Below, in pieces: positions 1,866 to 62,872 of a stretch of 64,000 bases of DNA. The position numbers and the translations under genes were made by a program. This DNA is from Candidatus Berkelbacteria bacterium (GTDB lineage: Bacteria > Patescibacteriota > UBA1384 > DTJR01). The notes under the pieces are model-generated. The model searched no databases and was not told where the DNA came from. It saw nothing but the letters and a program-made list of their open reading frames with translations. The stretch lies in NCBI GenBank assembly GCA_026397175.1, contig JAPLVK010000022.1, forward strand, positions 5,689-69,688, given 5' to 3'. Every line of letters starts with the position of its first letter. Position 1 is the stretch's first letter.

Positions 1866-2001
1866 TTGTGTTCATTATAGTAAAGAAGCCCTCGAAAGCA
1901 AATGGGCTATCGTCATTAAACCAAATTATTGAAAAATAAAAGAAAATAGGATACTCTCTTCTTGAGAAAGCTAGCATTCTTGACATACAGGAGACGCTGC
2001 A

Positions 2002-3636: not shown

Positions 3637-3649
3637 TCCGTGCTTCTGG

Positions 3650-3702
3650 CCAGCCCCGAATTATCGCTTTTTGCGACAATTCGGGGCTGGCTTCTTTTTT
3701 TA
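3650..3702 (+). terminator. Rho-independent terminator of guaA
   Basis: Inverted repeat ccagccccgaatt...aattcggggctgg followed by cttcttttttt. Confidence 0.65.
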
Positions 3703-3723
3703 AGATGATTTTAGGAAGAAAAT

Positions 3724-6431: not shown

Positions 6432-7388
6432 TTATTGTTTTAATTGCTCTACCAAAACCATCGCTCCCTTGCCAGTCCAATTATATCTTAGCTCATCCAA
6501 AACGCCATGGGATAAGTCCAGAACGACATCACCATCGTGATCGGCCGATCCCCAAGTACAGTCAACGGTTTTAATAATTTGCGCCCCATTTGCTTGATTC
6601 GTGATACGAAGGGTGGTTCCTTTTTTGTAGTTTGCGCTGATAACGGAACAATTTGAGGGATTATAAACCGTGGCGTAACCACGCTCCGAACTTAAAACAA
6701 TGACTTTGGTTCCGATCTTAATAATTTCGTCCTGCGGCTTATCAACAATTTCATTTTTTTGCAGCGTTTTTGAGACATCAATTCCGTCCTCGCGGCGAAC
6801 GAGGTAGAGGAGTCGTCTTTTTCCGGTTTTACCAATTTGCGAAGTTGTTTGTTTGCCTCGCTCTAGGGTCGGATCGTCAATTTTTTTTGTCTGATAGGGG
6901 AGTGTCTCAAAGTTCTCAATTTCAGCCAGAGAAACCCTTGTAATTTTAATTAAATTGTCTGCGGGCTCGGAGCCAAGCGCCGGAGAAACCATATCTTCTT
7001 TGGCTAATTGAATACTGGCTCCAGAGAGGATTTCCCCTACTCCCCTCTTAAAAGAATAAACGCCGTATGTTTTTTTGCCGTCTTGAATCGTATATTTTGG
7101 GGCTTTAAAAACCGCCTGGATGCCGCCGATGGCAAATTGTGGGTCCATAATAGTCACGATTTTTTGGGTTTGATCGAAAAAAATATTTTGCAAAATCCCC
7201 TCACCTGGCAGTTGATATTTGATTTCGGGCTCGACAATTTTTTCATCATTTTGAAAATTAGCCAGGGCGATTGCTCGGCCGATTATAAAATTTTTGTCCA
7301 TATTTTCACTTTGCGCATTACAAAAATTTGTGCCCCAAAATAGACCAAAGAAAACTAAAATTAATATTTTATAATTCAATGACTTCAA
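6432..7388 (-). CDS. Secreted G5-domain plus RlpA/3D-like (DPBB) cell-wall-binding protein
   Basis: Signal peptide, then a G5-like middle region. The C-terminus TTLRITNQANGAQIIKTVDCTWGSADHDGDVVLDLSHGVLDEL resembles the RlpA double-psi beta-barrel. Confidence 0.55.
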   Translation of the reverse strand: MKSLNYKILILVFFGLFWGTNFCNAQSENMDKNFIIGRAIALANFQNDEKIVEPEIKYQLPGEGILQNIFFDQTQKIVTIMDPQFAIGGIQAVFKAPKYTIQDGKKTYGVYSFKRGVGEILSGASIQLAKEDMVSPALGSEPADNLIKITRVSLAEIENFETLPYQTKKIDDPTLERGKQTTSQIGKTGKRRLLYLVRREDGIDVSKTLQKNEIVDKPQDEIIKIGTKVIVLSSERGYATVYNPSNCSVISANYKKGTTLRITNQANGAQIIKTVDCTWGSADHDGDVVLDLSHGVLDELRYNWTGKGAMVLVEQLKQ

Positions 7389-9964: not shown

Positions 9965-10090
9965 TCTATCGACAAATATTAATCTCGCATTCGCGAAGGA
10001 TTCTTCCCCCGAACTAGATCCGAGATCAATGACTAAAATTGGAGTATGCAAAGATTAAACCCTTACAAAGAGAATCATTTTAATAATTAG

Positions 10091-10146
10091 ATCAATATCA
10101 TAAATATTGATATATTGCACTTTTAGTACGATCGTACTAAAAGTGC
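10091..10146. repeat. Two adjacent palindromes upstream of the 10298 gene, including a 30-bp CGATCG-core palindrome
   Basis: atcaatat-cataa-atattgat (10091-10111) and gcacttttagtacgatcgtactaaaagtgc (10117-10146). Confidence 0.6.
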
Positions 10147-10297
10147 ATAAGATCTAGGAGAGGATACATTAAAAAATGTTAATTTACGGAAATTTTAAAA
10201 TTTGATTTGAAACAAAAATTCTGTAGCTTGAAGTTGAAATTAAGAAGAGTAAGATATTAGATAATTAAGCAATCAACAAAGTCCTTTAGGAGGGATC

Positions 10298-12034
10298 ATG
10301 GATTTGGATAAAAAACATCACGATGCGCCGAGAGTTGTGAATATTGGAATTTGGTCTATGGCCGTTGTAGGGGCACTCGCGTTTGCAATTTCGTTGGGCG
10401 GATGGTTTTATTCGTCTGTTGAATCGCCGATTTCGGCAAGTACCTCGGCCGGGTCGGGCACATGTCCGTCTGATAAACAAATTGCGATTAATAACTATCC
10501 CGGGACCAGCAAAGAATACCATGCCCTTTTGAGCAATTCGCGCGATCAAAATTGGCGATGCTCGCTTGTCTGTAATACTTCCGGAAAATCACCCGATGAG
10601 TTTATCAAAGGGTTAACAATTGGTGGAAAACCAGTAATTATTTATAGCACAGGCGATGAATTTAAAAGTAAGGGCAGTAACATCGGTAAGGATGATTTTG
10701 ACCGAGTCGTTGTTAGCGGCGCAACAAAAGGAAAATGTGAAGGCGCGAAAACCGGATCGACAAACGGCGCAAGCATTGACTATGTAGACATAAAATATAA
10801 CGACAAAGCAGTTGAACCACTTTCGAAGAATGAAACAATAAAGGAACTTTCGCAGGCAGCCAACGCCGACACAAGCAGCAATGAGCTACCAGCACCGATT
10901 GATAATCCAGGATCATCGCCAAGCGGGACAGACAGCACGACGACACCTGGACAAAAAGATGGTGTTCCAAAAATAAAGATTGTGAAACCAGGAACGCTAG
11001 ATCCCGATGCTCCGTCGTATACAATCCAAATTTCTGGAATTGAAAAATATTCCGACAGTACAAGAAAACCCGGAGATATTAGTATAACTGCAGCATTAAG
11101 CGACACTGACAGTAAGAGTGCAAAATTTCGTAATTCTCCAATTTGCGCTAGTGCTATGACACAAGGACCGGATGGTCATTATAATATGGAGTTTACGGTT
11201 GACGGAATATGGTATAGAGCAAATAGGAGTGCAAAGATATATTATTATGCTCTCGAAGAAACGGATGGGGCTATCCCTGAACAAAATAAAAGAAAACGAT
11301 CTTCATCGGATTCACTAAATAATCCAAGATATGTCCATTATGACGGCTCCACAATCCAAATAAAATATAACGAGGAATCCCTTTATGGTGTACAAGGTAG
11401 CGAAAATCCTGTTTTAACTTCAGCACAAGAATTGCAACAACAATGGGAATCTTTCGCAAGTGCGACAAAGTTAAATAGTTCACAGATGAATCAATGCGGG
11501 GGCTTGTCTTCGGGACCAACGCAAACAACGCAGGAAGTAGCGCAACAAACAATGCAGCAGATTACAAATCGAAATGGAACAGTTACATTTAAAATTTCCG
11601 GAAAAGTGTGGTGGAATTTTGCCGGAGGGTTAGAAAGTAAAAAAGCGGTTATTTGCGCAGCAATGTGGAATACTACTGACCCAGACGATCCTAAAAAAAG
11701 AAGTAAGATACCAAGCGAAGAATTCCAAAAGGTCAAGGCAAATACCAATGGAACATTTAGTATTGATTTGCCTGTAGCCATAAGGAATCTAAGGGGGCTA
11801 AGCATTGTTGCATTTGATCCCGGAGGAATTTATAGACCAAAATATTATTATTTCGGTCAAACTGCACTTGCTATGAAAAGCTATGTTATAAATGCAGTTG
11901 ACTTAACCACAAATAATTCTGCGTATGATGTCCCCTTCAACATAGGAAATCAGCTAGATCTTCAACAGGGTTATGGTGATTCAAAAAGGTGGCGAAACGA
12001 GTTCTATTATGCAACTGGTCACTACTGCGAATAG
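10298..12034 (+). CDS. Membrane-anchored large surface protein (hypothetical)
   Basis: 578 aa with an N-terminal transmembrane helix and a Ser/Thr/Asn-rich extracytoplasmic region. GGAGGGA RBS. No recognisable catalytic motif. Confidence 0.55.
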   Translation: MDLDKKHHDAPRVVNIGIWSMAVVGALAFAISLGGWFYSSVESPISASTSAGSGTCPSDKQIAINNYPGTSKEYHALLSNSRDQNWRCSLVCNTSGKSPDEFIKGLTIGGKPVIIYSTGDEFKSKGSNIGKDDFDRVVVSGATKGKCEGAKTGSTNGASIDYVDIKYNDKAVEPLSKNETIKELSQAANADTSSNELPAPIDNPGSSPSGTDSTTTPGQKDGVPKIKIVKPGTLDPDAPSYTIQISGIEKYSDSTRKPGDISITAALSDTDSKSAKFRNSPICASAMTQGPDGHYNMEFTVDGIWYRANRSAKIYYYALEETDGAIPEQNKRKRSSSDSLNNPRYVHYDGSTIQIKYNEESLYGVQGSENPVLTSAQELQQQWESFASATKLNSSQMNQCGGLSSGPTQTTQEVAQQTMQQITNRNGTVTFKISGKVWWNFAGGLESKKAVICAAMWNTTDPDDPKKRSKIPSEEFQKVKANTNGTFSIDLPVAIRNLRGLSIVAFDPGGIYRPKYYYFGQTALAMKSYVINAVDLTTNNSAYDVPFNIGNQLDLQQGYGDSKRWRNEFYYATGHYCE

Positions 12035-13871: not shown

Positions 13872-13948
<77 letters not shown>

Positions 13949-14079
13949 TCATATTTAGAAGAATAGCAAATTTCCTCGAATTAGTCAATTTACAGATTAA
14001 CAAATTTTGCGAAATAGTAAAGAGCTCTTTACATTTATGGTTTTTTTTATAAAATAGAAATGTGTTAAAAGTATAAAGT

Positions 14080-14156
14080 GACAGTGTAGCTCAGATGGTT
14101 AGAGCGAGGGAATCATAACCCCTAGGTCGCTGGTTCGATTCCAGCCACTGTCACCA
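14080..14156 (+). tRNA. tRNA(CAU): elongator Met or Ile2 (lysidine) type
   Basis: GACAGTG-TA-GCTC...anticodon loop AUCAUAA...T-arm GGUCGCUGGUUCGAUUCCAGC (resembles ileX-type T-arm), with encoded CCA. Confidence 0.75.
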
Positions 14157-35380: not shown

Positions 35381-35455
35381 TGGTCGGCCCGGCAGGGTTC
35401 GAACCTGCGACATTTCGCTTATAAGACGAATGCTCTACCCCTGAGCTACGGGCCG
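35381..35455 (-). tRNA. tRNA-Ile(UAU)
   Basis: The reverse complement gives CGGCCCG-UA-GCUC-AGGGGUA-GAGC-A-UUCGU-CUUAUAA-GCGAA-AUGUC-GCAGG-UUCGAAC-CCUGC-CGGGCCG-A-CCA. The 7-bp acceptor is fully paired; the anticodon is UAU. Confidence 0.7.
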
Positions 35456-43832: not shown

Positions 43833-44429
43833 TTATTTGAGTTTAAACGATTTTATAGTATCCGCCAACTCTTTGTCTGTAAAGCCCTGCAAATCGGATG
43901 GCGGTTCATTCCATGTTTTATAAGAAAAGACATAATCGCTATTGCTGGTGATTTTCACCGATTTTTCGTTATCGGAAAGCGCATTAAAAACCGATGATTT
44001 ATAGACAAAAATAGATATGGGTGTTGCGATTTTATTCTCGTATTTTGTGTCGGTAGTCGCCAGATTAAAATCAATCTTCACTTCGAACGATCCGTTCGTA
44101 AGGTTTTCGACTAATTTATAATTTTTCCAAATATCCGAAAATGATATCTCGAAACCGTATTTTGAATTTGTGTACTTTGGCCAGATAGCCGCGACTTGGG
44201 TGGCCGATGACACGCCACTTGATTCAATCGATGAAGAGTTGGAGACGGTCTGGGACGCTGTAGCTGGAGAATTGTTTGTATCTTTTTTAATTTTTTTGGC
44301 ATAGAACAGCGAGCCAACAGCAATAATAATGGCTAGAATAAGCAATATCAGTGCAATACGATTTTTTGTTTTCATTTTCCCCTTCTTTTTAACTATATTA
44401 CCACATATTTGTAAAATGGCCCCACCCAA
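43833..44429 (-). CDS. Membrane-anchored Ser-rich hypothetical protein
   Basis: Transmembrane helix RIALILLILAIIIAVGSLFY plus a Ser-rich linker. Confidence 0.4.
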   Translation of the reverse strand: MGGAILQICGNIVKKKGKMKTKNRIALILLILAIIIAVGSLFYAKKIKKDTNNSPATASQTVSNSSSIESSGVSSATQVAAIWPKYTNSKYGFEISFSDIWKNYKLVENLTNGSFEVKIDFNLATTDTKYENKIATPISIFVYKSSVFNALSDNEKSVKITSNSDYVFSYKTWNEPPSDLQGFTDKELADTIKSFKLK

Positions 44430-44456: not shown

Positions 44457-44819
44457 TTACATCCCCTTGTATTCCCATTTGATACTATCTGACGATTTTG
44501 TCTGATATTTATCGGCGGCAACACTAGGTTGAGCACCGTTAACCGAATACAACCAGAAGTCCTTATCGGTTGACTTCAGGTCGTCTATGCTATTTACCAT
44601 AACTCCAAGAGAACTATCTTGGGACTCAACCTGATGATTTGCTTTGAGAATATCGAAGGCCGTTTTCCCCTCTTCGCCTTGATACTCAATCGTTTTTTGC
44701 TCTATAGCAACAGCCGTTGGGTTTGTTGCGGCCTTTTTGTTGAAAGCGCAACCCGTTAATAACCCACCAAAAACAAGAACTGATACAAAGACAATTAATA
44801 CATTTTTCTTAAAATTCAT
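44457..44819 (-). CDS. Lipoprotein with DUF4430-like domain
   Basis: Lipobox LLTGC, then ...FWLYSVNGAQPSVAADKYQTKSSDSIKWEY. Confidence 0.5.
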   Translation of the reverse strand: MNFKKNVLIVFVSVLVFGGLLTGCAFNKKAATNPTAVAIEQKTIEYQGEEGKTAFDILKANHQVESQDSSLGVMVNSIDDLKSTDKDFWLYSVNGAQPSVAADKYQTKSSDSIKWEYKGM

Positions 44820-45144
44820 GATACTCCTCTGCTAATTATATTTTACCGAGATCTTTTCCGACAAGACAAATTTAATTTTTATGAGTAAGGCATTTTTCCT
44901 CCTCGGGATAAAGAACATGTTGGTTTTCCGACTTTACGGTAGCGGGACTGTGACGGTATTAAACCGCGCTTGCCCAAACATGTTGATTAGTTTGTATTTA
45001 CTACTTAAACAACAATAATCATAATTGTCAAACAGAGATCCTAACTCAAAGTTATACAGATTACAAAATGTTACATAACTTTTAATTAACTTACTTAACT
45101 TTGTTCGGGTACCTAATAAAACTTATATATTTTTGTTCTCTCAC

Positions 45145-49488: not shown

Positions 49489-51435
49489 TCAAATGCCCAG
49501 ATCATATTCGTCATTTTCCCAGTACATTATTACGCCATAATTACCGCTCTCGGGATCATCTTCCATGTAATTTTCTTTTATTCGCGCAATTTTAAGTCCT
49601 CGTCCGGTGTAGAATCTGATGTCGGGATCGGCCAAATTATCCCCATCTTTTTGATTTACAAATTGCTCTATTGTCAGGCTCGGGTTATCATCTTTGGCTT
49701 TTTTGAAACCAGGTACCCTCGATCCGAGAAACAGATATTTCAAGTTCTTCTGTTTTACCAATTCTTTCTGTGCTTCGATTAAGGCTACCCCTATTCTGTT
49801 ACCTTTATATTGCGCTCTAACGCCTAGCGATACAACATAAAGTGAGTTGCCGTCTTTGTTATGTCCGCCCGTAATAGTTCCGTCCTCTGAATGTACAGGA
49901 CTAATGAACCCGTTATTCGTAATTTTCTCCCAGGATTCTACATCATCTGTTGGCTCAAAATTTGAAATTTCGGAAGTGCTGACTCCTGCAATAATTCCGA
50001 ACTCATAACCCAAAAAGAATCCTTCAGGAAAAACTTTCATTCGAGATTCAAATTTTTCTCTTGGCGCTCGAACTTCTTCGGGCCATGCCTCCTCCTCTGT
50101 TCGCATGACGCCTTCGAGTTGTTCGTTCGTTATAACCTCGTCTTTTGTGTTGATTGTTTCAATGCAAATTTGCTTCAGCTGCTGTAGCCAGTCTTTATAA
50201 CAATGACACTCCTTGTTTGTTGGGTCATTTTCCCAGCTTAAAAGCTCGTTATAGTCTCGCAAGAATGATTGCTGGTCCATATCGTGATTAAAGCTACTTA
50301 AAATTTCAATAACTTTTTCATTGCAATATTTACTGCCGGTGTCTGGATTCCCCCCTGTTACAATTGAGATTCCCTCTCCGCTCAAACCGACATGTAGACC
50401 CAAATAATCAAATACATTACTCTCGCCGTCTAAGATTCTGCCACAGAGTTGTTTGATCGTTTCTGCAATACTCCAGTACATCGGTGCTTTGTAGCTTCTG
50501 AACATATGAAGCAGTGAGTCTCTATATGTTCTCGTTGGTCCGAGAGAAACATGAGGTTTTAATTCGGGTTTCAAGTTAAGATCTTTTGATATTTGGGCTA
50601 CTTGTACCGCTGATTCAATAGCCGATTTTATCGCGAAGTTTTCGCTCATTAGTCCTGGCTTAAGCAGGATGTAGAAAAATGATCTGACATTTCTTTTGGC
50701 AAGATCATCTATTATTCCGCGCAGAGCCTCTTCGCTTATGCTTTTTCTTAATTGTTCTCCAATAATCTGGTCGGTGGTTTCAAGTCCGAAGGCAATCTCG
50801 AGTCGTCTTGTACCGCCATCGCTATTTAGCCACGCAAGAACTTCATCGACCTTATCTTGCGATTGAACAATGTCAGCAAATTTTGCTTCGACAGTCAGGA
50901 CAATATTTTTGGGTGAATTTTCTCTCACAACATCAATTATTCTTTTCCTTCCGTCAGCAGAAATCTCTTCGTCGCTAAAAAATGAGCCCGAGTTAAAAAT
51001 TTCGATAATATCAATATGCTCACTCTCGAATTGAAATGAGGGACGCACTGTATTCATAGCATCTACCATCTGCTGCTCATACTGTTCTGGTGTAACGGGG
51101 TTTCCTCCAGTTGAGTAATTTTCGCTAAATACGCAAAATGCACAATTTGGGTATTCGTTAGATTCTGCGTGTGAACGACGCTTGGAACAACCGGGTGATT
51201 TTAATAAAATCGATGCTCGTCTGGCGGGTTGTCCATCGAGTGTTGTTAGGCCCCCAGTGTCAACGAAAAATGGTTTCGACACCTCTCGGGCATACATTTC
51301 AGGATTTTCTCTCGCATCTCTGGCAAGTTTAGCCGCGTCGCCCTTGTGTTCATAAACCTGCGCTATCTTTTCAGGAGCCCGAAAATCGATCCCTACATCT
51401 CCATACTCATTTTGACTTTCGACATCTGAACCCAT
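49489..51435 (-). CDS. Elp3-like radical-SAM plus GNAT (KAT) domain protein
   Basis: C-x14-C-x2-C (CSKRR...PNCAFCVF) then NYSTGGNP. IEIFNSGSFFSDEEI parallels the Elp3 'IELIIMGGTFPARDIE' motif, and ...FFYILLKPGLMSE parallels 'HLMPGMPG'. The C-terminus YKGNRIGVALIEAQK...FYTGRGLKIARIKENYMED is a GNAT motif A like the Elp3 KAT tail. Confidence 0.5.
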   Translation of the reverse strand: MGSDVESQNEYGDVGIDFRAPEKIAQVYEHKGDAAKLARDARENPEMYAREVSKPFFVDTGGLTTLDGQPARRASILLKSPGCSKRRSHAESNEYPNCAFCVFSENYSTGGNPVTPEQYEQQMVDAMNTVRPSFQFESEHIDIIEIFNSGSFFSDEEISADGRKRIIDVVRENSPKNIVLTVEAKFADIVQSQDKVDEVLAWLNSDGGTRRLEIAFGLETTDQIIGEQLRKSISEEALRGIIDDLAKRNVRSFFYILLKPGLMSENFAIKSAIESAVQVAQISKDLNLKPELKPHVSLGPTRTYRDSLLHMFRSYKAPMYWSIAETIKQLCGRILDGESNVFDYLGLHVGLSGEGISIVTGGNPDTGSKYCNEKVIEILSSFNHDMDQQSFLRDYNELLSWENDPTNKECHCYKDWLQQLKQICIETINTKDEVITNEQLEGVMRTEEEAWPEEVRAPREKFESRMKVFPEGFFLGYEFGIIAGVSTSEISNFEPTDDVESWEKITNNGFISPVHSEDGTITGGHNKDGNSLYVVSLGVRAQYKGNRIGVALIEAQKELVKQKNLKYLFLGSRVPGFKKAKDDNPSLTIEQFVNQKDGDNLADPDIRFYTGRGLKIARIKENYMEDDPESGNYGVIMYWENDEYDLGI

Positions 51436-51447
51436 TTTTCTGCTCCG

Positions 51448-52290
51448 TTATCTTTCCTTAATCATTTGTTTACCTCTAATCCTTGGCGAAAAGTTTTTGC
51501 CGGTAACTACGCTTTTCCCAGTTTTGTTTTCGAGGGCTTTTCTTGCGTCTTTCGCAATTTTACCACCTTTTTTGGCTGGAATCTTATTTTCTTCCAATCC
51601 TTTTGTTTTGTCTGTCTCGGCGATTCGTCTTGTTGAAAGTTCGGCAAGCGCGGTGAAGATCAATTCTTCTTCGCTCATATGATCTCGCAGATTTTGCGTT
51701 TTTAAGCCCTTCAAATTCTTGTGATCTTTGACGGATAAATCGCTCCATTCTTTGTGAATAATATTCGTCAATATTGCAAATTCTTCGCCCTCTTTTACTT
51801 CGTGATCAGCCCAATAATCAGTCAATTTGTTTCTGGTCTCATGCCCAGTCATCCGTTGCTGAATCCACTTTTGGCTTCGGCCCATTTTCTGCCAATAACT
51901 CCTTGATCTATCTAGTGCTTTTTCCGGATCTGCCATTTCTTGTATTCTCTCGTAACCAGTTTTCGCTAGCCACAATTTAAATGGCTCGGCTTTTTTACTC
52001 GGGACTGACTGAATGATTCTAAATATTTGTTCTGTACTGCCTGCCAAAGTTTTTCTTTTTTTCCCTGTCTCTGTGACCATTTCTACCTGGGGACAATTTG
52101 TCCCTATGTAATGCCCGACCTCGAAGTCCCTTTTGCGAAGCTTTTTGAGATAGTCGGTTGGATTTATACTATCGGTAAGTGCTGCGATAATATCAATTAC
52201 CGAAAAATACCATGTTTCGGTTTTTTCGTCATAATACCGACGAATTTTGAAGCTTTCGAAAATAGCTAATGAATTTTGTTTAATTTTCAT
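51448..52290 (-). CDS. DinD-like (DNA-damage-inducible protein D family) protein
   Basis: ...HETRNKLTDYWADHEV...NLRDHMSEEELIFTALAE resembles the E. coli DinD conserved core. Confidence 0.6.
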   Translation of the reverse strand: MKIKQNSLAIFESFKIRRYYDEKTETWYFSVIDIIAALTDSINPTDYLKKLRKRDFEVGHYIGTNCPQVEMVTETGKKRKTLAGSTEQIFRIIQSVPSKKAEPFKLWLAKTGYERIQEMADPEKALDRSRSYWQKMGRSQKWIQQRMTGHETRNKLTDYWADHEVKEGEEFAILTNIIHKEWSDLSVKDHKNLKGLKTQNLRDHMSEEELIFTALAELSTRRIAETDKTKGLEENKIPAKKGGKIAKDARKALENKTGKSVVTGKNFSPRIRGKQMIKER

Positions 52291-52294
52291 ATTT

Positions 52295-53245
52295 TCAATT
52301 CTTCAATTTTTTTAAATTAAATTTTGTGATTTCTTTGCGCACGATTTTTTCCATTTCTTTGTGTGATATTTTACCTTTACTCGATAATATTTCCAATTTA
52401 TTTGCCTTAAGCATATTGTCAAGATAAGAATCCCAGTCCTTCATATACATAACATTTTGGCGCTCAATCTGAAATTCAGCATAAGAAAGAAATTGCTCAA
52501 CCAGTAAATAAAGTTGGCGAAGCTCTGTTTCAAGCATATAATTTTTGGCGATCTCTGCTTCTTGTCTCGTTACGGAAACTTTTTTGTAATTGGTCATACC
52601 AAGATTTTCTTTTCTGCTGTCAATCCGATTAACAACTAATTCGGCGGCAGTTTTGCCTGTTATGGCATGGTGAAATTTATTCTGCATAGCAGCATAAAAC
52701 TTTTTTGTATAATCGGCTTTAGTATCATAGTCCGCACTGGTTGAAAAAATATCTTTGACTTTTTCGTATAAATTTCTTTCCGAAGCGCGAATCTTTCGGA
52801 CGCGCTCCAGCATCTCACCAAAATATCCTCGTTTGTAGCCGCCGTTTGCTAGCCGCTCATCGTCCATAACAAATCCTTTGACAATATATTCTCGCAGGGT
52901 CTTTGTCGCCCAAATACGGAATTGCGTACCCCGAAAAGATTTTACCCGATAGCCAACGGAAATAATTACATCGAGATTATATTGCTCGATTTCACGAATT
53001 ATTTCCCTTGGTCCCTCTTTTTGAACTATCCGGAATTTCCGGACAGTTGGAACCCTACTTAGTTCTCCTTCACTAAAAATATTTTTAATGTGTTCGTTTA
53101 CAGTTTTAACATCTTTCTCGAATAGTTCAGCCATCTGTTTCTGGGATAACCAAACTGTCTCGCCGGTCATCCGAACTTCAATTTGAGTTGAACCGTCTTC
53201 AGTTTTATAAATAATGACTTGGTTTTTCTTGCTAGATTCTTTCAT
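52295..53245 (-). CDS. RhuM-family protein
   Basis: VRKFRIVQKEGPREIIREIEQYNLDVIISVGYRVKSFRGTQFRIWATKTLREYIVKGFVMDDERLANGG is a close match to the RhuM signature. Confidence 0.75.
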   Translation of the reverse strand: MKESSKKNQVIIYKTEDGSTQIEVRMTGETVWLSQKQMAELFEKDVKTVNEHIKNIFSEGELSRVPTVRKFRIVQKEGPREIIREIEQYNLDVIISVGYRVKSFRGTQFRIWATKTLREYIVKGFVMDDERLANGGYKRGYFGEMLERVRKIRASERNLYEKVKDIFSTSADYDTKADYTKKFYAAMQNKFHHAITGKTAAELVVNRIDSRKENLGMTNYKKVSVTRQEAEIAKNYMLETELRQLYLLVEQFLSYAEFQIERQNVMYMKDWDSYLDNMLKANKLEILSSKGKISHKEMEKIVRKEITKFNLKKLKN

Positions 53246-53404: not shown

Positions 53405-53737
53405 TCAAGTTCCCTTTCTTGCTAAATAATTAAATGCATAAAAATAATTTTGCCATGATTTGTCGGTGGATTGATATTGGTTTTCGAAAAACCAATCGGC
53501 TAAAACCTCGCGCATTCGGCAGAGTTCACGCAATTGTTTTTTATTTTTCGGATCGAGCCGTGTTATGTCAATCAGCTCCAAAGCGCGCTCGAAAGCAAGC
53601 TGCGAATATTCTAAATCATTTTTATTTTTCCAGATAATCGTTCGCTCCACTTCACTGCCGATATTGGCCATTTGCTCGGCTAACGATTTAGAAAACCATT
53701 TTTTTTCTGTTAAGTCCTTATGATAAAAAAGATTCAT
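53405..53737 (-). CDS. Hypothetical helical protein (partner of a DUF protein)
   Basis: 110 aa; start overlaps the stop of the upstream gene (ATGA). Confidence 0.35.
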   Translation of the reverse strand: MNLFYHKDLTEKKWFSKSLAEQMANIGSEVERTIIWKNKNDLEYSQLAFERALELIDITRLDPKNKKQLRELCRMREVLADWFFENQYQSTDKSWQNYFYAFNYLARKGT

Positions 53738-54075
53738 TTTTGAACTATTTTGTTAACAACTATAATTATCTTTTCGCGAATTTTTGGATCGTCAACCGAT
53801 CTTGTTCGATTGCCTTGTGAGGGGCGCAAGTTAACCATCGAATCAAATTCGATAAATTCCTCGCCGGTTTTTTCGGGATACAAATTTATTCCCCAAAGAT
53901 TTTGTTGTTTCGAACCATTTTGAAGCAGTAATTCTTCTTCGTCACTATGCATTCCCGCGTCAACAGCCATAACCTCTTTCTCAATATCAACAACCGCCTT
54001 AATCAAAGTGCCAAACATATCCTCGGCCATCTTTTTTAATTCGCTAAGTGATATATTATCTTCAATTATTTTCAT
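53734..54075 (-). CDS. Conserved small protein of unknown function
   Basis: MKIIEDNISLSELKKMAEDMFGTLIKAVVDIEKEVMAVDAGMHSDEEELLLQNGSKQQNLWGINLYPEK... Confidence 0.4.
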   Translation of the reverse strand: MKIIEDNISLSELKKMAEDMFGTLIKAVVDIEKEVMAVDAGMHSDEEELLLQNGSKQQNLWGINLYPEKTGEEFIEFDSMVNLRPSQGNRTRSVDDPKIREKIIIVVNKIVQK

Positions 54076-54189
54076 AAATTAATATTTACCTCACCTTAAG
54101 CTTCCCATAAATCAAGAAAAAAATAAAGTCCAAGCATCGGTTCTAATTTTGCAACTTTAAAAATTCACTCATTTTCCCTTTCTCCCCTG

Positions 54190-54217
54190 CACTTTTGAGA
54201 CGATCGTCTCAAAAGTG
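54190..54217. repeat. 28-bp perfect palindrome (CGATCG-core family), left bracket of the PaaX-like gene
   Basis: cacttttgagacgatcgtctcaaaagtg. Confidence 0.7.
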
Positions 54218-54262
54218 TATGCCTCAAACCTGTATTTACTTGCTAGTTTTTATAATATGAGA

Positions 54263-54841
54263 TTAAAGATCGAATTTATTTTTAAGATATTCTTCACAAT
54301 CAATCTTGGAAAGTTCTCCGTAATTAACAAATTTTTCAACTTCAAAGACCGAACTAATAAAAGATATCTCATCCTCGCACTTATAGGGGCAAACCCAAAC
54401 ACTTTTTTGCAATTTGACAAAACCGATTTCTATCAATTTACTTCTCAAAATATTTCTAGCAAATCGGAGTTTTTCGGGAATATCAAAAAATACTATTCTC
54501 CATTTGCCATCCCATTTATGTTTATTAATCGAAATAGCATCAATGTCATAATCCACTAACCTTACCTTACCTTTTTGTGTAATTTTAATAATTGTTTTGC
54601 CTTTTCGATAGGTAATCTGAACAAATCGGTCCTTAATTATTTTCTCGAGTGATTTATCAACTGCTTCATCGCCGTGTTTCTTGCGCAGCTTGTTCAGTTT
54701 GGGAATAAATTTTGAAAGCCCATAAGGAGAAGTCAAGGCAACACCGATTACCAAACCAATCAGCACCACTTCCAATACCAATTTTGCTACCTCAACGAAA
54801 ACTTCTTTTTCATATTTGGTAAGCCGAACCTTTGAACTCAT
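54263..54841 (-). CDS. PaaX-C/Cas2-fold domain protein with N-terminal transmembrane helix
   Basis: WDGKWRIVFFDIPEKLRFARNILRSKLIEIGFVKLQKSVWVCPY resembles the PaaX C-terminal (Cas2/VapD-like) domain. ATG at Met-13 of the ORF-track ORF; the track's GTG start would sit inside the palindrome. Confidence 0.5.
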   Translation of the reverse strand: MSSKVRLTKYEKEVFVEVAKLVLEVVLIGLVIGVALTSPYGLSKFIPKLNKLRKKHGDEAVDKSLEKIIKDRFVQITYRKGKTIIKITQKGKVRLVDYDIDAISINKHKWDGKWRIVFFDIPEKLRFARNILRSKLIEIGFVKLQKSVWVCPYKCEDEISFISSVFEVEKFVNYGELSKIDCEEYLKNKFDL

Positions 54842-54872
54842 ATACTTAACATTATCACTAATTTGAATCCTC

Positions 54873-54906
54873 TGCACTTTTGAGACGATCGTCTCAAAAG
54901 TGCAGG
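54873..54906. repeat. 34-bp perfect palindrome (extends to about 40 bp imperfect), right bracket of the PaaX-like gene
   Basis: ctgcacttttgagacgatcgtctcaaaagtgcag. Confidence 0.7.
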
Positions 54907-55232
54907 CAGAGGGTGTATCTTTATTACGCTGAATCTCGGAAAAATAAATTTAGAGAACTGATTTTTGATAACCCCGAGCCAAAGGATTCCCCTTGGGGAA
55001 GAGGACCCTTGGGGCATTTTTATGGTTCGCTCCGCCGGCTGGCGGATTTAGGATGAAAAAAAATTTATCCTATGATTCGTTGATAATATTTTTCGCCCAT
55101 TCGACTCGCTTCGCTCGTTCAGGATGAAAGTTGTCTTTATAATACCGATTTCTGGTAGCAACTTTCGCCCTTCGACAAGCTCCCTCCTTCGCTAAAGCTA
55201 CGGAAGGGCAAGCAGAGTGAATCTTGCTCGTG

Positions 55233-56954
55233 TTATATCACTTCTTTTTGGTAGCAAGATTCACAGTAAACTTTTTCCGGTCTTTCGGGTGCATAGGTGG
55301 TTTCGAATTCGTTGGGGCAGTGGCCAGAATGATCGTGGCCAGGCAGATCGCACATGCATTGGCGGTGATACAAAACCCGCGGATTGCGCAGTTTAAATAA
55401 TTCTTTGTATCTCACCTCGGAATGTTTAGTTGGCACGGGAATTCTCTGTCTTATATAAAACGCCAACTCTTGCGGCATGATTTTGAACGGTTTTCCCGAC
55501 TTTTCACATTTCAAAACTCCCGCCAGCAATTTTTTAACTTCTTCGTCTGAATTTATGTAATCATCAATTGAATCTTTTGGCTCGTAGGCTTCGCCTTTAT
55601 AATCAGGATTGTATTCTTTGTCCTGCCACTTGCCGCCAATTTTCTCGGCTTCTGCCTTGGTTTTGGGATGATAAATATTAGCCATTGTTTCGTTGTAACC
55701 AAACAAAGACATTTTCATCGGGCAAAACTCTCCCCACTCGCCGTCTTTTTGCATTCGCTCAATTATTTTTGGCACCAATTTATCATATTCTTCCTTGGTA
55801 TACTGTTTATTCAAAATACAATGCTGCTTGTGATTAATCCCGATACAGCCAAAACAATTTGAGCAGTAATCAATAAAGTTACAATACAAATTACTGTCTC
55901 CGTAGGCGGTCCAGACACTAAAACGGTTTTTGTAACCAGCGTTGCTTGTCCCGTCGTAACAGAGTTCCGCTTCGGTAATATAATCGAGGTCGCGGCAATC
56001 CTTGCTATCAGCATCAATATTGGTGATCCTGACACAATTTTGGCTTTTATAGGCGTTAAAACACTTTTTGCAGTCTTTACATTCAATTAAATAATCACCT
56101 GTGCAGTTTTCTGTTTTGACATTGTTGTTTTCTTTGTGAATCGCCTTGAGCATGCCTTCGCCGGATCTCTTTTTGTATTCTTCGACCACCGATCTTCTGC
56201 CAAAATCAATTTCCTTTAATTTCTTTTTGTATTCTTCTTCGGAGTACTCTTTGTTTTCAATGCAATATTGCTTATTGTGTAAACCCGCACAAAGCAAAAC
56301 ATTGTTGCACCCTCGGCAGTCGTAAGAAAAATAAGATTCGGAGCAATTCTCACAATGCTCTAAATACATTGAATTATGGCAATGATCGCAGTCAAAACAA
56401 TGGTAGCAATATTCACAATTTCTAATATCAAAACAATCAATGCAGTCCTTAGTATAAAAAGTTTCGGTGCAGTAATAGCATCTTTCCGCATAGCCAGCAT
56501 TAAAACAAAGATACGAATCCTTCGTCTGCCAAGTTTGATTGCAAAAATTACTGTTCTCAACGATGGTAGTATTGTTGGCCTGACGCGGAACGGCTAGTAA
56601 AAGTTCATTAAACTGCTCAAAAAATGACTGGTTGAAATCGAATTCACGGCCGAAGCTCATTGGATCCCAGTCGTCGGATCTCCAGACAGAATTTTTATAA
56701 ACCTTGTAGGGCTTGTCCGGAGAATAAACCGAGACAATTTCCTCGCCTGTTTTATCACATTTTCTTTTATAAAGTGAGCGCTCGTTTCTCCAGCAGAGTC
56801 GCCTGATTTGTCGGCAGGTGTAGCAAAGTTTTGGGGCATCAATTTTATAAACCCGCCCATTCAAAACCGGACTAATTTTTTCCAGAAACGCCAAATCATC
56901 ATCGCTAACGACAAATTCTTGTCCACATTGTTTGCAAGTTTTATTTTCTGCCAT
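55233..56954 (-). CDS. Cys-rich repeat protein with duplicated terminal zinc-ribbon-like domains
   Basis: N-terminus CKQCGQEF...ELAFLEKISP...CYTCRQIRRLCWRNERSLYKRKCDKTG...VY. The C-terminus repeats this pattern (KCEKSGKPFKI...ELAFYIRQRIPVP...CESCY). The middle has more than 12 C-x2-C units about 12-13 aa apart. Confidence 0.45.
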   Translation of the reverse strand: MAENKTCKQCGQEFVVSDDDLAFLEKISPVLNGRVYKIDAPKLCYTCRQIRRLCWRNERSLYKRKCDKTGEEIVSVYSPDKPYKVYKNSVWRSDDWDPMSFGREFDFNQSFFEQFNELLLAVPRQANNTTIVENSNFCNQTWQTKDSYLCFNAGYAERCYYCTETFYTKDCIDCFDIRNCEYCYHCFDCDHCHNSMYLEHCENCSESYFSYDCRGCNNVLLCAGLHNKQYCIENKEYSEEEYKKKLKEIDFGRRSVVEEYKKRSGEGMLKAIHKENNNVKTENCTGDYLIECKDCKKCFNAYKSQNCVRITNIDADSKDCRDLDYITEAELCYDGTSNAGYKNRFSVWTAYGDSNLYCNFIDYCSNCFGCIGINHKQHCILNKQYTKEEYDKLVPKIIERMQKDGEWGEFCPMKMSLFGYNETMANIYHPKTKAEAEKIGGKWQDKEYNPDYKGEAYEPKDSIDDYINSDEEVKKLLAGVLKCEKSGKPFKIMPQELAFYIRQRIPVPTKHSEVRYKELFKLRNPRVLYHRQCMCDLPGHDHSGHCPNEFETTYAPERPEKVYCESCYQKEVI

Positions 56955-57508
56955 TATATTCTTTTATACTCTTTTTCTAATCCAAGTTTTTTTACCCATT
57001 CGTTTATATAATCGTTATCCACTTTCGAAATCTCTAAAATTGATTTAATATCATCCGCGTGTCGGCTGGAATTGTCTTTTTGCATCCACTGAAGTTTGGA
57101 AATTATTAAATCCTCCGGGGAAATAAATCTAACTTCGCGGCCAATATCTTTTTTAATTGATCTTCTTAGTCGCAGTTTATCATAATCTTTGTTATAGACA
57201 ATCCAAAAATCAATTTTCATTCCGATATTTGGTTCTATAATATTGAACTCACCATTATTTTTTAGAGCATCTCTCATTTGAAGAGGATCTATATACGCAT
57301 CTGGAAATTCACTTTTTAATTTGCCGGCGAGCTGATCGATATTTTTTTCTTCGAGATGAATAACTAAATCAATATCTGCTGTAAACCGAGGTTTTCCCCA
57401 AACAGATACTGCAAAACCTCCGCTAACAAAAAAATCGATTCTTAAATTATTTAAGATTTCTGCGATTTTATTTAAGAGGTCTGTTGGGGTTTTGGGTTGT
57501 TTTTGCAT
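56954..57508 (-). CDS. Minimal nucleotidyltransferase (Pol-beta-like NTase fold) protein
   Basis: GGFAVSVWGKPRFTADIDLVIH matches the hG[GS]x9-13Dh[DE]h motif. Its stop overlaps the next ATG as TAATG. Confidence 0.6.
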   Translation of the reverse strand: MQKQPKTPTDLLNKIAEILNNLRIDFFVSGGFAVSVWGKPRFTADIDLVIHLEEKNIDQLAGKLKSEFPDAYIDPLQMRDALKNNGEFNIIEPNIGMKIDFWIVYNKDYDKLRLRRSIKKDIGREVRFISPEDLIISKLQWMQKDNSSRHADDIKSILEISKVDNDYINEWVKKLGLEKEYKRI

Positions 57509-59932: not shown

Positions 59933-60117
59933 TTAATAAAAAAATCTTTCGCTTAAAAGGACGAAAGATTTCTTCCGTGGTGCCACCTTTTTTGCCTGCT
60001 GTTGCAGGCCCCTTAGACACTCCGGTATTACCCGACATGTCTTAGCTCGATTACGGGAGCTCCCGGCGTTGGCTACTATTAGTTCACCAAGCGTCTCGCA
60101 GGCCCATTCTCCTGGTC
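59933..60117 (-). promoter_or_regulatory. Roughly 185-nt 5' leader with terminator/anti-terminator features; possible T-box-like attenuator
   Basis: Minus-strand ...GGGGCCUGCAACAGCAGGC-AAAAAAGGUGGCACCACGGAAG-AAAUCUUUCG-uccuuuuaag-CGAAAGAUUU-UUUUUAUU, then the SD. GGUGGCACCACGG is close to the T-box consensus AGGGUGGNACCGCG. Confidence 0.35.
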
Positions 60118-60125
60118 ATCAACTT

Positions 60126-60154
60126 TCTTAAATTTAATATACAACTAAATATTT
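60126..60154 (-). promoter_or_regulatory. Sigma70-like promoter TTGACA-17-TATATT (minus strand)
   Basis: Reverse complement of tgtcaa (60149-60154) and aatata (60126-60131), with a 17-nt spacer. Confidence 0.55.
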
Positions 60155-60224
60155 ATTTTGTCAAATAAATAAACAAACATGGCGCCGTCAGAGACGGCGC
60201 CATGGGACGATGCACAAGCAATCG

Positions 60225-61196
60225 CTAGATGATCGCGCGAATTGCTTCGAGCGTTGAGAGTTGCTCGTCGGGGATGACATTGCCGAACACATTGTTCAGC
60301 ACTGTTACCACCCCAGTCGGAGCAACTCCATTGCGGGAGATACAGTAGAGGAAACCCTTCGGGAAGGTCTTCACTTGGACGAAATATTCGGTCGGCGGGA
60401 AAACCATCCCAACCAAACGGTTCAGACCAACCTGGTCAAACCAGTTGGAGAGGAAAAAACCTCCTTGATCTTTACGAACACCGACGACCTGCAGACCAAT
60501 GATGTCTGGCCTCTGGACTAGTTGTCTTGCGGTGCAAGATATCAGTTCTAACTTGAACTCCTCCAGCGCGACCGAATCCAAGTCCGCGCTAAGTTCCATG
60601 CCGGTCTCGATTCGGGAGATCTCCTGGCCGTTGAAAGTCAGGTAGTCGAACCAGAAGTTGTCGCCAAGAATCTCGCGGTTGGCAATGTACTCGTCGAACC
60701 CAGCATTCGGGTAGCCGTGATCAGGGTTCGGGAGGAAGAAGGCCTTAACATCATACACACCCATAATCAGAGTGCGATTGGCGGGTGGAACACCGCCGGC
60801 GATATCGAGGATCGCTCCGGGATGGTAGCTGATATCAGCGCCACATTCCTGACACTTGGCCAGAGTATGGCTCTTGGCCGTTGCGAGCAGATTCGGCGAC
60901 AGGTCGTTGAAGAAAACATTGACCAATCCTCTGTTCGGCGGCTTGCAGGGATCACATCCGGAGCAGATGGCCTGCTTAAAGATCATCAGCGGATCTCGGC
61001 AACCAACCGCTCCACCAAATGTTACAACATTCGAGATACCAGGGATTCTCCTGCAAATCTCGATTACAGCGTCCATCTCACCTGCGTTGTCGACCGTCAT
61101 GTCGGCGGTCTCGTAGATATCAAACTGCCGATCCCAAAACTTGAGTTGGCCCGCCCTATCAAGGGCGGGCTTTCGCCAGGAACACGGGTTTGCCAT
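60225..61196 (-). CDS. Hypothetical GC-rich protein with Cys cluster (possible class-I methyltransferase-like fold)
   Basis: ...VVTFGGAVGCRDPLMI... is Gly-rich and SAM-loop-like; CSGCDPCKPP...CQECGAD. Start at MANPCSW; the ORF-track start abuts the tRNA. Function not recognised. Confidence 0.4.
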   Translation of the reverse strand: MANPCSWRKPALDRAGQLKFWDRQFDIYETADMTVDNAGEMDAVIEICRRIPGISNVVTFGGAVGCRDPLMIFKQAICSGCDPCKPPNRGLVNVFFNDLSPNLLATAKSHTLAKCQECGADISYHPGAILDIAGGVPPANRTLIMGVYDVKAFFLPNPDHGYPNAGFDEYIANREILGDNFWFDYLTFNGQEISRIETGMELSADLDSVALEEFKLELISCTARQLVQRPDIIGLQVVGVRKDQGGFFLSNWFDQVGLNRLVGMVFPPTEYFVQVKTFPKGFLYCISRNGVAPTGVVTVLNNVFGNVIPDEQLSTLEAIRAII

Positions 61197-61227
61197 AGTG
61201 AACGCCTCCTTGGATTGGTGGAACATT

Positions 61228-61303
61228 TGGCACGCCGGCGGGGACTTGAACCCCGAACCTTCGGTTTTGGAGACCGCTACTCTGCCAATTGAGCTACCGG
61301 CGT
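61228..61303 (-). tRNA. tRNA-Trp(CCA), copy 1
   Basis: ACGCCGG-UA-GCUC-AAUUGGCA-GAGU-A-GCGGU-CUCCAAA-ACCGA-AGGUU-CGGGG-UUCAAGU-CCCCG-CCGGCGU-G-CCA; discriminator G73. Confidence 0.8.
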
Positions 61304-61309
61304 GTTTTC

Positions 61310-61777
61310 CTACGCTGATAAGTCACTGATGATTGGGTCAGCGACAAGTAGCAGGTCAGAGAACTTAATCTTCAAGCTCGATGTCCTTTGTCCGAGGCCG
61401 CAGTAAACGGTTTCGGAATCTATCGAAGAGTCGAATGCGGTTACGAGTTGAAGCCCAAACGGCGGGATTGCTCCGATTTCCACATTCAGACGGTCTTGTA
61501 CCTCTTGGGTCGTGGCCAGATCAACCTGGGATCTCGATAGTCCGAAAGCTTTTGCTGCTTTGGATCGTGAGATTCGTTTGTCGCCTGGCAATACAGCTAA
61601 CAGCAAATTGCCGGATCGCTTGTCCTTGAGAATGATGGCCTTAACCATCTGGACATATTCTATGCCCAGCACTCGAAAAACATCATCCGTTGTTATGACC
61701 GCTTCGTGATCAATAACCTCAAACGGCAGGTTACGGTCAGTGAGGATTGCTATCAGTTTGTTTTTCATGATGATCAC
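61310..61777 (-). CDS. YbaK/ProX-family aminoacyl-tRNA deacylase-like protein
   Basis: 155 aa. ...VKAIILKDKRSGNLLLAVLPGDKRISRSKAAKAFGL...EIGAIPPFGL is typical of the YbaK/ProX trans-editing fold. Confidence 0.65.
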   Translation of the reverse strand: MIIMKNKLIAILTDRNLPFEVIDHEAVITTDDVFRVLGIEYVQMVKAIILKDKRSGNLLLAVLPGDKRISRSKAAKAFGLSRSQVDLATTQEVQDRLNVEIGAIPPFGLQLVTAFDSSIDSETVYCGLGQRTSSLKIKFSDLLLVADPIISDLSA

Positions 61778-61786
61778 AGGTTAAAA

Positions 61787-61862
61787 TTGGCACGCCGGCG
61801 GGGACTTGAACCCCGAACCTTCGGTTTTGGAGACCGCTACTCTGCCAATTGAGCTACCGGCG
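61787..61862 (-). tRNA. tRNA-Trp(CCA), copy 2
   Basis: Identical to copy 1 except for acceptor position 1 (G1·U72 rather than A1-U72). Confidence 0.8.
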
Positions 61863-61873
61863 CGCAATTCTAC

Positions 61874-62872
61874 CTAGAACCGTATCAGTCCGACTTTGGT
61901 CCGGACTTCCTCGAGTGTTTCTGTGGCACTTTCGCGCGCCGTGATTCCTCCTTGGTGCAGAACATCGCGCACGAGGTTCTTTTGTCGCGCGAGTACTTGT
62001 CGCCTTTCTTGCATCGGTGCCAGCATGCTAATGACCGCGCTAGCAAAGCAGTCCTTGCACTCAACACAGCCAATTTGGGCATTCTCACAAACCGGTATGA
62101 TGTCTTGGGCGGCTTTATCGGCTCCCAAGACATGCTCCTGTAGTACATAGAGATTACACTCCCAGGGATGTCCCGAGTCGGTGCGTCTCTCACGCTTGGG
62201 GTCTGTGAGGGCATTGCGGCACTTCTGTCTGATAATCTCCTCTGAATCAGTCAGGGCGATTGTCGCACCCGAGGACTTACTCATCTTGCCTTCGCCCCCT
62301 AAGCTCGGGACACGGATGTCCTTGCCGGAAAGCTTCTTGGGGATGGGAAAGGTCAAACCGAATTTGGCGTTGAAGCTCCGGGCCAGATCGCGAGCTATCT
62401 CGAGATGAGGCAGTTGATCTTCACCGACAGGAACGACATTGGCCTTCTGGATGAGAATATCGGCCGCCATAAGTATCGGGTAGGTCAGAAGACCCGTGTT
62501 GATGTTGTCCGGTTGAGACGCCGCTTTTTCCTTGTAGGTAGGGCAACGCTCGAGCACAGAAACCATCATGAGGTTGGACAAAATCCAACTCAATTCAGGG
62601 ATCTGCGGGACAGACGACTGGGCGAAGATGACCGCCTTTTCCGGATCAAGTCCAGCAGCAAGATAGTCCAGTACAAGTTCTCCAAGGTTGTCGCGTAGCT
62701 CGGCCGGGTTAGTTAGCGTCGTCAACGAATGCCAATCAGCCACAAAGAAGTGGCAGTTGTATTCGTCTTGCATCTGGACGAAGTTTCGGATTGCGCCCAG
62801 ATAGTTCCCGAGATGCACATTGCCGGTGGCGCGGATACCCGACACCACAATTGGTTTCAAACTGGTCTCCAT
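61874..62872 (-). CDS. trpS: Tryptophanyl-tRNA synthetase with C-x22-C-x6-C-x2-C motif
   Basis: GNVHLGNYLGAIRNF (HIGH-type) and KMSKS. The insert CNLYVLQEHVLGADKAAQDIIPVCENAQIGCVECKDC has the same Cys spacing as the [4Fe-4S]-binding TrpRS of Thermotoga. Confidence 0.9.
   Translation of the reverse strand: METSLKPIVVSGIRATGNVHLGNYLGAIRNFVQMQDEYNCHFFVADWHSLTTLTNPAELRDNLGELVLDYLAAGLDPEKAVIFAQSSVPQIPELSWILSNLMMVSVLERCPTYKEKAASQPDNINTGLLTYPILMAADILIQKANVVPVGEDQLPHLEIARDLARSFNAKFGLTFPIPKKLSGKDIRVPSLGGEGKMSKSSGATIALTDSEEIIRQKCRNALTDPKRERRTDSGHPWECNLYVLQEHVLGADKAAQDIIPVCENAQIGCVECKDCFASAVISMLAPMQERRQVLARQKNLVRDVLHQGGITARESATETLEEVRTKVGLIRF

Follow-up and report, generated by a model that had tools for sequence, protein, structure and literature searches.

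Introduction

Elp3 is, to our knowledge, the textbook and essentially unique case of a radical S-adenosylmethionine (SAM) domain working with a GNAT-fold coenzyme A (CoA) domain. The cysteines of its cluster are spaced C-x4-C-x2-C or C-x9-C-x2-C. Communication between its two sites was clarified only in 2026, and the KAT domain of the enzyme supplies acetate to its own radical SAM site (PMC13315578). A looser arrangement is found in RaSEA, the radical SAM enzyme of archaeosine, which is active only in complex with ArcS (PMC11298593). Among GNAT-like domains, that of CurA uses R387 to contact the 3′-phosphate of CoA and H389 with T355 as a decarboxylase dyad, the position of this His being taken in canonical GNAT acyltransferases by a general-acid Tyr (PMC3701320). 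Here we analyse a gene for a 648-residue protein in a stretch of 64,000 nucleotides from a Candidatus Berkelbacteria bacterium (GenBank assembly GCA_026397175.1, contig JAPLVK010000022.1, positions 5,689 to 69,688 of the forward strand), which we refer to as the window. An earlier note, made from the sequence alone, had described the protein as a bacterial Elp3 with a non-canonical cluster motif. We find that it has the domain layout of Elp3, that its two halves are related to RaSEA or queuine lyase and to CurA, respectively, and that these two modules recur together in several arrangements.

Results

A small family of acidic two-domain proteins

The gene starts with an ATG that has a Shine-Dalgarno-like GGAG 8 nt on its 5′ side, and NCBI has an identical (100%) sequence, hypothetical protein NTZ65_04475, from a Candidatus Berkelbacteria metagenome-assembled genome. 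Searching 5.8 billion clusters by a word-indexed method gave only eight clusters of full-length homologues, its own included, at 44–65% identity, and a word-indexed search made for a deeper alignment gained little. Residue numbers below come from the alignment of the eight family members (A1). The 648-residue open reading frame (ORF), the C-x14-C-x2-C spacing and the motifs quoted in the earlier note are all present: C83-x14-C98-x2-C101 is followed by ENYSTGGNP (residues 105–113), IEIFNSGSFFSDEE covers residues 143–156, ETTDQ lies at 219–223 and KPG at 259–261, and the C-terminal block FYTGRGLKIARIKENYM extends over residues 608–624. All eight homologues keep C83, C98 and C101 unchanged, and many residues of the other blocks are likewise invariant; given the invariance of these cysteines across homologues at such identities, we are dealing with a conserved gene and not with a chance ORF.

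The predicted full-length structure (predicted template modelling score, pTM, 0.71) and domain hidden Markov models (HMMs) agree with the note on the order of a radical SAM domain followed by a domain of GNAT fold, which is the layout of Elp3. An extra N-terminal segment, also proposed there, is real, though with about 45–55 residues against stand-alone relatives it is shorter than the 80 or so that had been suggested, residues 57–82 being a beta-hairpin that is part of the family core. The window protein has a pI of 4.85 and most members are strongly acidic, with a net charge of about -30; going by composition, such acidity would argue against unaided binding of tRNA or DNA.

A radical SAM domain close to RaSEA and queuine lyase

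The curated family that scores best for the N-terminal domain is TIGR01210 (RaSEA), which matches all eight members (best E 1.8e-32). The window protein itself reaches 81.5 bits (E 6e-23; NCBIfam), which is below the curated cutoff of 212.15 bits, and two divergent fusions, P0013 and P0016, exceed that cutoff. TIGR01211, the Elp3 model with a cutoff of 350 bits, has no match to the window protein at E<=10, nor to any of the eight members at E<=0.01, and Pfam gives no Radical_SAM or Elp3-type match in any of the eight. Comparison of a profile of the domain family to PDB sequences gave E values of 3.8e-14 for queuine lyase (6p78), 2e-6 for archaeal Elp3 and ~0.1 for eukaryotic Elp3; human Elp3 takes rank 31 in the Foldseek listing. 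Because the TIGR01210 and 6p78 matches far exceed that to Elp3, profile evidence places the N-terminal domain, a radical SAM barrel, in the RaSEA/queuine-lyase branch, to which Elp3 is a distant cousin.

Relatives of the TIGR01210 type carry GC-x8..14-C-x2-C throughout this branch, and the x14 spacing is therefore a family trait; the spacing that the note reported is there, but it is the usual one for RaSEA-like proteins and its description as non-canonical is not borne out. In a broader alignment of 21 sequences (A3), G82, C83, C98, C101, Q122, G150, S151, G217, E219, K231 and K259 are invariant, and the core motifs of the RaSEA type (GS, GxE, K and KP) are kept in the window protein. Most of the superfamily also has a C-terminal Cys tetrad, NCxxC...CxC, the first Cys of which is absent in the subclade of the window protein (P0001-3) and present in P0004-8. 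The site left in the window protein, C371/C410/C412, could bind Zn or an auxiliary cluster.

A GNAT-like domain close to CurA

According to structure prediction and fold comparison, the C-terminal domain folds as a GNAT, as the note had expected, and more particularly as the extended GNAT fold, with detectable homology to CurA, GphF and SxtA. A profile of the domain retrieves SxtA, CurA and GphF at E values of 4e-20 to 6e-16; ordinary GNATs score no better than 2e-6, and Elp3 chains are absent at E<=0.01. The sole Pfam match is a sub-threshold one to PF00583 over residues 506–573, and PHROGs has nothing for this domain beyond a weak generic acetyltransferase match.

At the active site, R607 aligns with CurA R387, so that the Arg that contacts CoA is kept, the position of CurA H389 is taken, as in canonical acyltransferases, by a Tyr (Y609), which is invariant in all eight members, and CurA T355 aligns with position 572, a Ser or an Ala. 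Judged by these residues, the domain looks like a CoA-binding GNAT of the acyl-transfer or hydrolysis type on a CurA-like scaffold and not like a decarboxylase, a function that we downgrade because the catalytic His is replaced by Tyr609.

Two modules found together in several arrangements

An exhaustive search with a profile against 1.84 billion representatives gave 1,935 matches, and 163 retrieved sequences were classed with local domain HMMs. Fusions with the radical SAM domain first account for 14 of the 163 (two of them with radical SAM inserts and one with a duplicated GNAT-like domain) and fusions in the reverse order, P0016 among them, for another five; single-domain relatives make up the remainder, 104 with the GNAT-like domain only and 40 with the radical SAM domain only. 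A similar association is found between separate genes at one locus (L020), where P0010, the nearest stand-alone radical SAM relative, is encoded with a 4-nt overlap to a downstream GNAT-like gene whose product is 37% identical to the C-terminal domain of the window protein (E 2e-38). In P0111, a B12-radical SAM domain is the fusion partner of the same GNAT-like clade. We regard the two modules as a functional unit because they are fused in both orders and also occur as a split, translationally coupled pair, and we make these structural and evolutionary statements with considerable confidence. Literature searches on TIGR01210, on radical SAM–GNAT fusions in defence islands and on related terms found no description of this family.

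Genomic context

Large serine recombinases, related to each other and adjoining tRNA genes, are encoded within a few kb of the fusion gene at two homologue loci (L001 and L004), and another recombinase related to these is encoded at L008, where Dam methylase, T5orf172, OLD/AAA_15, PD-(D/E)XK and PLD genes surround the homologue. Downstream of the homologue at L004 are genes for a Peptidase_S51 protein, an HhH-GPD glycosylase, a DUF4365 protein and a YfbR-like HD protein, and a KAP NTPase is also among the neighbours of homologues. At L005 and L015 the surroundings consist of a TrmB regulator and polysaccharide genes. An all-against-all comparison of the flanks shows only the serine recombinase to recur (three of five loci), and the small upstream genes have no detectable homology between loci, L001 and L004 excepted. 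A GTDB genome scan gave stand-alone C-domain genes only, in housekeeping-like contexts, and a metagenome scan gave only loci that were already known (L014 being the same as L008). From these contexts we infer that the gene is a self-contained piece of accessory cargo, which integrative or defence-type islands of bacteria of the Candidate Phyla Radiation (CPR) often carry.

Two loci have a B12-radical SAM gene next to the family member. At L001 it encodes 605 residues (9969–11786, +) and begins directly after the fusion gene; at L019 (2376–4013, +) it shares an operon with the divergent fusion P0013 and an NMT1-type ABC transporter. The two products are 26% identical over 575 residues (E 2e-36) and are not close to the B12-radical SAM part of P0111. 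No such neighbour was found in the window or at the other loci examined.

Several further features of the homologue loci can be recorded. An RNA-family scan upstream of the homologues found LOOT RNAs and tRNAs only. The LOOT RNAs (RF03000, ~72 bits each) are at L001 (7284–7405, +) and L004 (6501–6627, +), in each case just 5′ of the gene for a small DUF3761 membrane protein, after which comes the fusion gene, and at both loci these genes and the RNA belong to an element that has a tRNA gene and a large serine recombinase at its borders. Directly 5′ of the L004 homologue is a 900-nt GC-rich, structured-looking intergenic region (7078–8001) with no Rfam match, a part of which (7765–7998) resembles a segment 3′ of the B12-radical SAM gene at L001 (12322–12585). 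Small proteins that by eye resemble CheY receivers are encoded directly 5′ of the homologues at L005 (7422–7898, +) and L008 (7514–7912, +), with no significant mutual similarity by BLASTP. At L009 (9959–12912, +), a 226-residue stand-alone GNAT-like relative is followed by genes that by eye resemble succinyl-CoA synthetase beta and alpha subunits and citrate synthase, a context that fits the use of acyl-CoA.

In the window (Table 1) genes for a RhuM family protein and a Bro-N domain protein and then the fusion gene follow each other closely on one strand, and the Bro-N gene is probably co-transcribed with the fusion gene. The fusion protein matches none of the families in PADLOC-DB 2.0. Farther upstream is a run of accessory genes that also includes one for a DUF5674 protein with a small overlapping partner (within 53405–57508, -), and the accessory patch is bordered by housekeeping genes.

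Table 1. Location in the window of the gene, its domains and motifs, and its upstream neighbours
Feature	Coordinates	Strand	Basis or remark
Whole gene, 648-aa radical SAM + GNAT-like fusion protein	49489-51435	-	ORF, ATG start
N-terminal extension, aa 1-55, three short helices, specific to the family and its nearest relatives	51271-51435	-	Structure model, low to moderate confidence
Radical SAM domain, aa 46-425, RaSEA/queuine-lyase (TIGR01210-like) branch	50161-51300	-	
Predicted [4Fe-4S] cluster motif C83-x14-C98-x2-C101, family-invariant	51133-51189	-	Alignments
C-terminal Cys site of the radical SAM domain (C371, C410, C412)	50200-50325	-	Alignments
GNAT-like acyl-CoA-binding domain, aa 423-645, CurA/GphF/SxtA type	49501-50169	-	
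R607-F608-Y609 motif, aligned with CurA R387-F388-H389	49609-49617	-	Alignments
Bro-N domain protein, PADLOC candidate defence family PDC-S13 (E 2e-115)	51448-52290	-	12 nt from the fusion gene
RhuM family protein, PADLOC candidate family PDC-S05 (E 2e-128)	52295-53245	-	4 nt from the Bro-N gene
Accessory gene run farther upstream	53405-57508	-	
PaaX/Cas2-like protein	54263-54877	-	
573-aa Cys-rich protein, no Pfam or PADLOC match	55233-56954	-	
AbiEii-like nucleotidyltransferase	56954-57508	-	

Elsewhere in the window, an AdoCbl-II (cobalamin) riboswitch (44914–44984, -; 40.3 bits, over the gathering score) is followed downstream by a 120-residue lipoprotein-like ORF (44457–44819) and a 198-residue ORF (43833–44429), and the organism probably senses or scavenges B12. 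Two tRNA-Trp(CCA) genes (61228–61303 and 61788–61863, -) stand on either side of a YbaK-type tRNA_edit gene (61310–61777), and a class I aminoacyl-tRNA synthetase gene of the Trp/Tyr type (PF00579; 61874–62872) adjoins the pair. ARAGORN finds a tRNA-Ile with the anticodon TAT (35381–35455, -), which is uncommon in bacteria, AUA being usually read by a lysidine-modified CAU tRNA. Two divergent tRNA-Met(CAT) genes are about 130 nt apart at 13872–14156. The GC content of two 2-kb bins, 2001–4000 and 60001–62000, is ~0.517 compared to ~0.40 elsewhere, with no rRNA found by Rfam; the second of these bins contains the tRNA-Trp genes and a 333-residue ORF without a Pfam match.

Discussion

The interpretation that we prefer, and in which our confidence is evenly balanced, is that of a two-module enzyme whose halves act together in an Elp3-like logic that was assembled independently, a group derived from an acyl-CoA being coupled to radical chemistry; for the chemical coupling of the two activities as such, we would go as far as even or a little short of it. 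In such an enzyme, C83, C98 and C101 would hold a [4Fe-4S] cluster and SAM would be cleaved to the 5′-deoxyadenosyl radical, and the GNAT-like module would bind an acyl-CoA, most likely a short one such as acetyl-CoA. This module might then, as in Elp3, supply the radical SAM site with the acyl group or with the acid set free from it, or it might acylate the substrate first and leave further processing to the radical module, in the way that ArcS and RaSEA handle lysine. The difficult step on the acyl-derived group would be that of the radical module. The characterised relatives of the radical module all have modified nucleosides as substrates, and the protein is acidic; for these reasons a nucleoside or nucleotide, or else a base that another factor presents, would be the most likely substrate, and not naked tRNA.

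Several observations weigh against this interpretation. RaSEA and queuine lyase are C–N lyases and do not form C–C bonds; they act on 7-deazaguanine nucleosides (PMC11298593). The position of Y609 is Phe in a few stand-alone GNAT-like relatives, and given this Y609 may not be catalytic; where the classical CoA loop, Q/R-x-x-G-x-G/A, has its first Gly, the window protein has an Arg. With respect to context, some members lie in polysaccharide or transporter loci and not in defence islands, no neighbouring gene is conserved across all the loci examined, and the flanks examined in the window and at homologue loci hold no 7-deazaguanine, TGT, ArcS or QueC/D/E-type genes. Finally, two scans of viral contigs, one with a C-domain and one with an N-domain pattern, found no relative, and there is no PADLOC match.

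An alternative that we consider unlikely yet worth serious attention is that two classical activities follow one another, in either order: a radical C–N lyase step like that of RaSEA or queuine lyase and an ordinary N-acetylation by the GNAT-like domain, on a 7-deazaguanine-type or another nucleoside or nucleotide, the acyl group itself undergoing no radical chemistry. C–N lyases of 7-deazaguanine nucleosides are the closest relatives with a known activity (PMC11298593), a Tyr at the general-acid position suits ordinary acyl transfer, an acidic protein suits small basic substrates, and the divergent fusions P0013 and P0016 score above the RaSEA cutoff. However, genes of the queuosine and archaeosine pathways are missing from every flank examined and the window protein itself is far under that cutoff, and a tight fusion repeated in both orders suggests more than a loose link within a pathway, without excluding one.

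Quite unlikely, in our estimate, is a role as an effector of a conflict system on a mobile element, in defence or anti-defence, which would modify DNA or tRNA bases with acyl-CoA and radical chemistry in the manner of phage Mu Mom, or of an Elp3 chemistry turned on invading DNA or to its benefit. Such a role concerns biology more than chemistry and can overlap with the two-module enzyme preferred here. It agrees with the serine-recombinase islands at tRNA genes, with neighbours such as the KAP NTPase, Dam methylases, OLD, PLD, DUF4365 and the HhH-GPD glycosylase, with the patchy distribution of the family, and with the PDC-S13 and PDC-S05 genes that lie upstream on the same strand with gaps of 4–12 nt; Mom, too, combines a GNAT fold and acetyl-CoA with proposed radical chemistry, on DNA adenine (PMC7261163). 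The PDC families, however, have no more than candidate status, five loci make a weak case for guilt by association, several relatives are found in non-defence contexts, the protein lacks a PADLOC match and was absent from viral contigs in both scans, and its acidic surface is ill-suited to direct binding of nucleic acid. A further reading has a slimmer chance still: a self-contained nucleobase hypermodification enzyme carried by mobile elements, in which the CurA-type GNAT would deliver a two-carbon unit derived from acyl-CoA to a radical site of the RaSEA/queuine-lyase type, and this site would join the unit to a base in DNA or tRNA or would remodel the base. If true, it would amount to a second independent invention of Elp3/Mom-like chemistry, in CPR bacteria or their elements, for defence or counter-defence.

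That the C-terminal domain is a malonyl-CoA-type decarboxylase, and the protein part of a small-molecule pathway (polyketide-like or for a cofactor) that sometimes includes a B12-radical SAM methylase, appears very improbable to us. GNAT-like decarboxylases are its closest structures and sequences, and homologous B12-radical SAM genes stand beside the distant members at L001 and L019, the latter in an operon with an ABC transporter. However, the His-Thr/Ser dyad (PMC3701320) is not kept, the His position being Tyr609 here and Phe in some relatives and residue 572 a Ser or an Ala, the protein has no acyl carrier protein (ACP) or polyketide synthase (PKS) domains and the flanks no ACP, ketosynthase or other PKS genes, and the B12-radical SAM partner is missing from the window and most loci.

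The identity proposed by the earlier note, a genuine bacterial Elp3 orthologue forming cm5U (5-carboxymethyluridine) at the tRNA wobble position U34, is scarcely credible, for beyond the order of the domains, a GNAT fold in the C-terminal half and a remote radical SAM profile similarity to archaeal Elp3 (E 2e-6, with human Elp3 at Foldseek rank 31), the eight members give no TIGR01211, Pfam Radical_SAM or Elp3-type match, RaSEA and queuine lyase are much closer, the C-domain profile leads to CurA, SxtA and GphF and to no Elp3 chain at E<=0.01, which makes it CurA-type and not KAT, and the gene encodes a protein of pI 4.85 and net charge of about -30 and is sporadic island cargo rather than a housekeeping tRNA gene. 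On these grounds the protein is not a bacterial Elp3, and the formation of cm5U cannot be inferred from it.

A two-module enzyme as proposed here would mean that the design of Elp3 was rebuilt from other parents, a radical SAM domain of the RaSEA/queuine-lyase type and a GNAT-like domain of the CurA type, shuffled in both orders and as split genes. For enzymologists this would provide an independent system in which to ask how generally radical sites are supplied with an acyl group or acid. The RaSEA family, for whose bacterial members we know of no function, would be extended as well, and a PKS-type GNAT-like domain would be placed outside polyketide synthases, with an active site like that of an acyltransferase. 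As the gene travels on islands beside defence-like genes in CPR bacteria, microbial conflicts are one setting in which its product might perform new chemistry on nucleic acids or metabolites.

Comparison with known systems

One system that can be compared is Mom of phage Mu, which has a GNAT fold, uses acetyl-CoA, is borne by a mobile element and is proposed to attach a two-carbon unit to a nucleobase by an iron-dependent radical reaction (PMC7261163). Mom is a small basic DNA-binding protein without a radical SAM domain, and the likeness is one of analogy only. The GNAT-like half can be set beside CurA, GphF and SxtA, and malonyl-CoA decarboxylase. Those have a His-Thr/Ser dyad where the window protein has Tyr (Phe in some relatives) with Ser or Ala, and CurA, GphF and SxtA are PKS loading modules joined to a methyltransferase or an ACP, whereas the domain studied here is joined to a radical SAM domain and has no ACP near.

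For the radical SAM half the comparison is with RaSEA, which has in common with the window protein the long GC-x8..14-C-x2-C motif and part of a C-terminal Cys site. RaSEA needs ArcS (PMC11298593), and the radical module of the window protein is likewise tied to a second catalytic module; the partner differs, however, being a fused GNAT-like domain in place of ArcS, and the protein scores 81.5 bits against a cutoff of 212. RaSEA is archaeal, whereas the window protein comes from a CPR bacterium; it misses one Cys of the C-terminal tetrad, and the examined flanks of its gene contain no preQ0, TGT or ArcS genes. Queuine lyase (6p78) is a single domain of ~230–250 residues, without a GNAT partner or a C-terminal Cys subdomain, and its match spans only the first ~160 profile positions.

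Elp3 differs in its cluster spacing (x4 or x9 against x14), in a GNAT half that is of the KAT type and not of the CurA type, and in being encoded by a conserved tRNA modification gene, whereas the window gene has an acidic product and is sporadic island cargo. What Elp3 and the window protein have in common is the layout itself, a radical SAM domain followed by a GNAT domain in one polypeptide.

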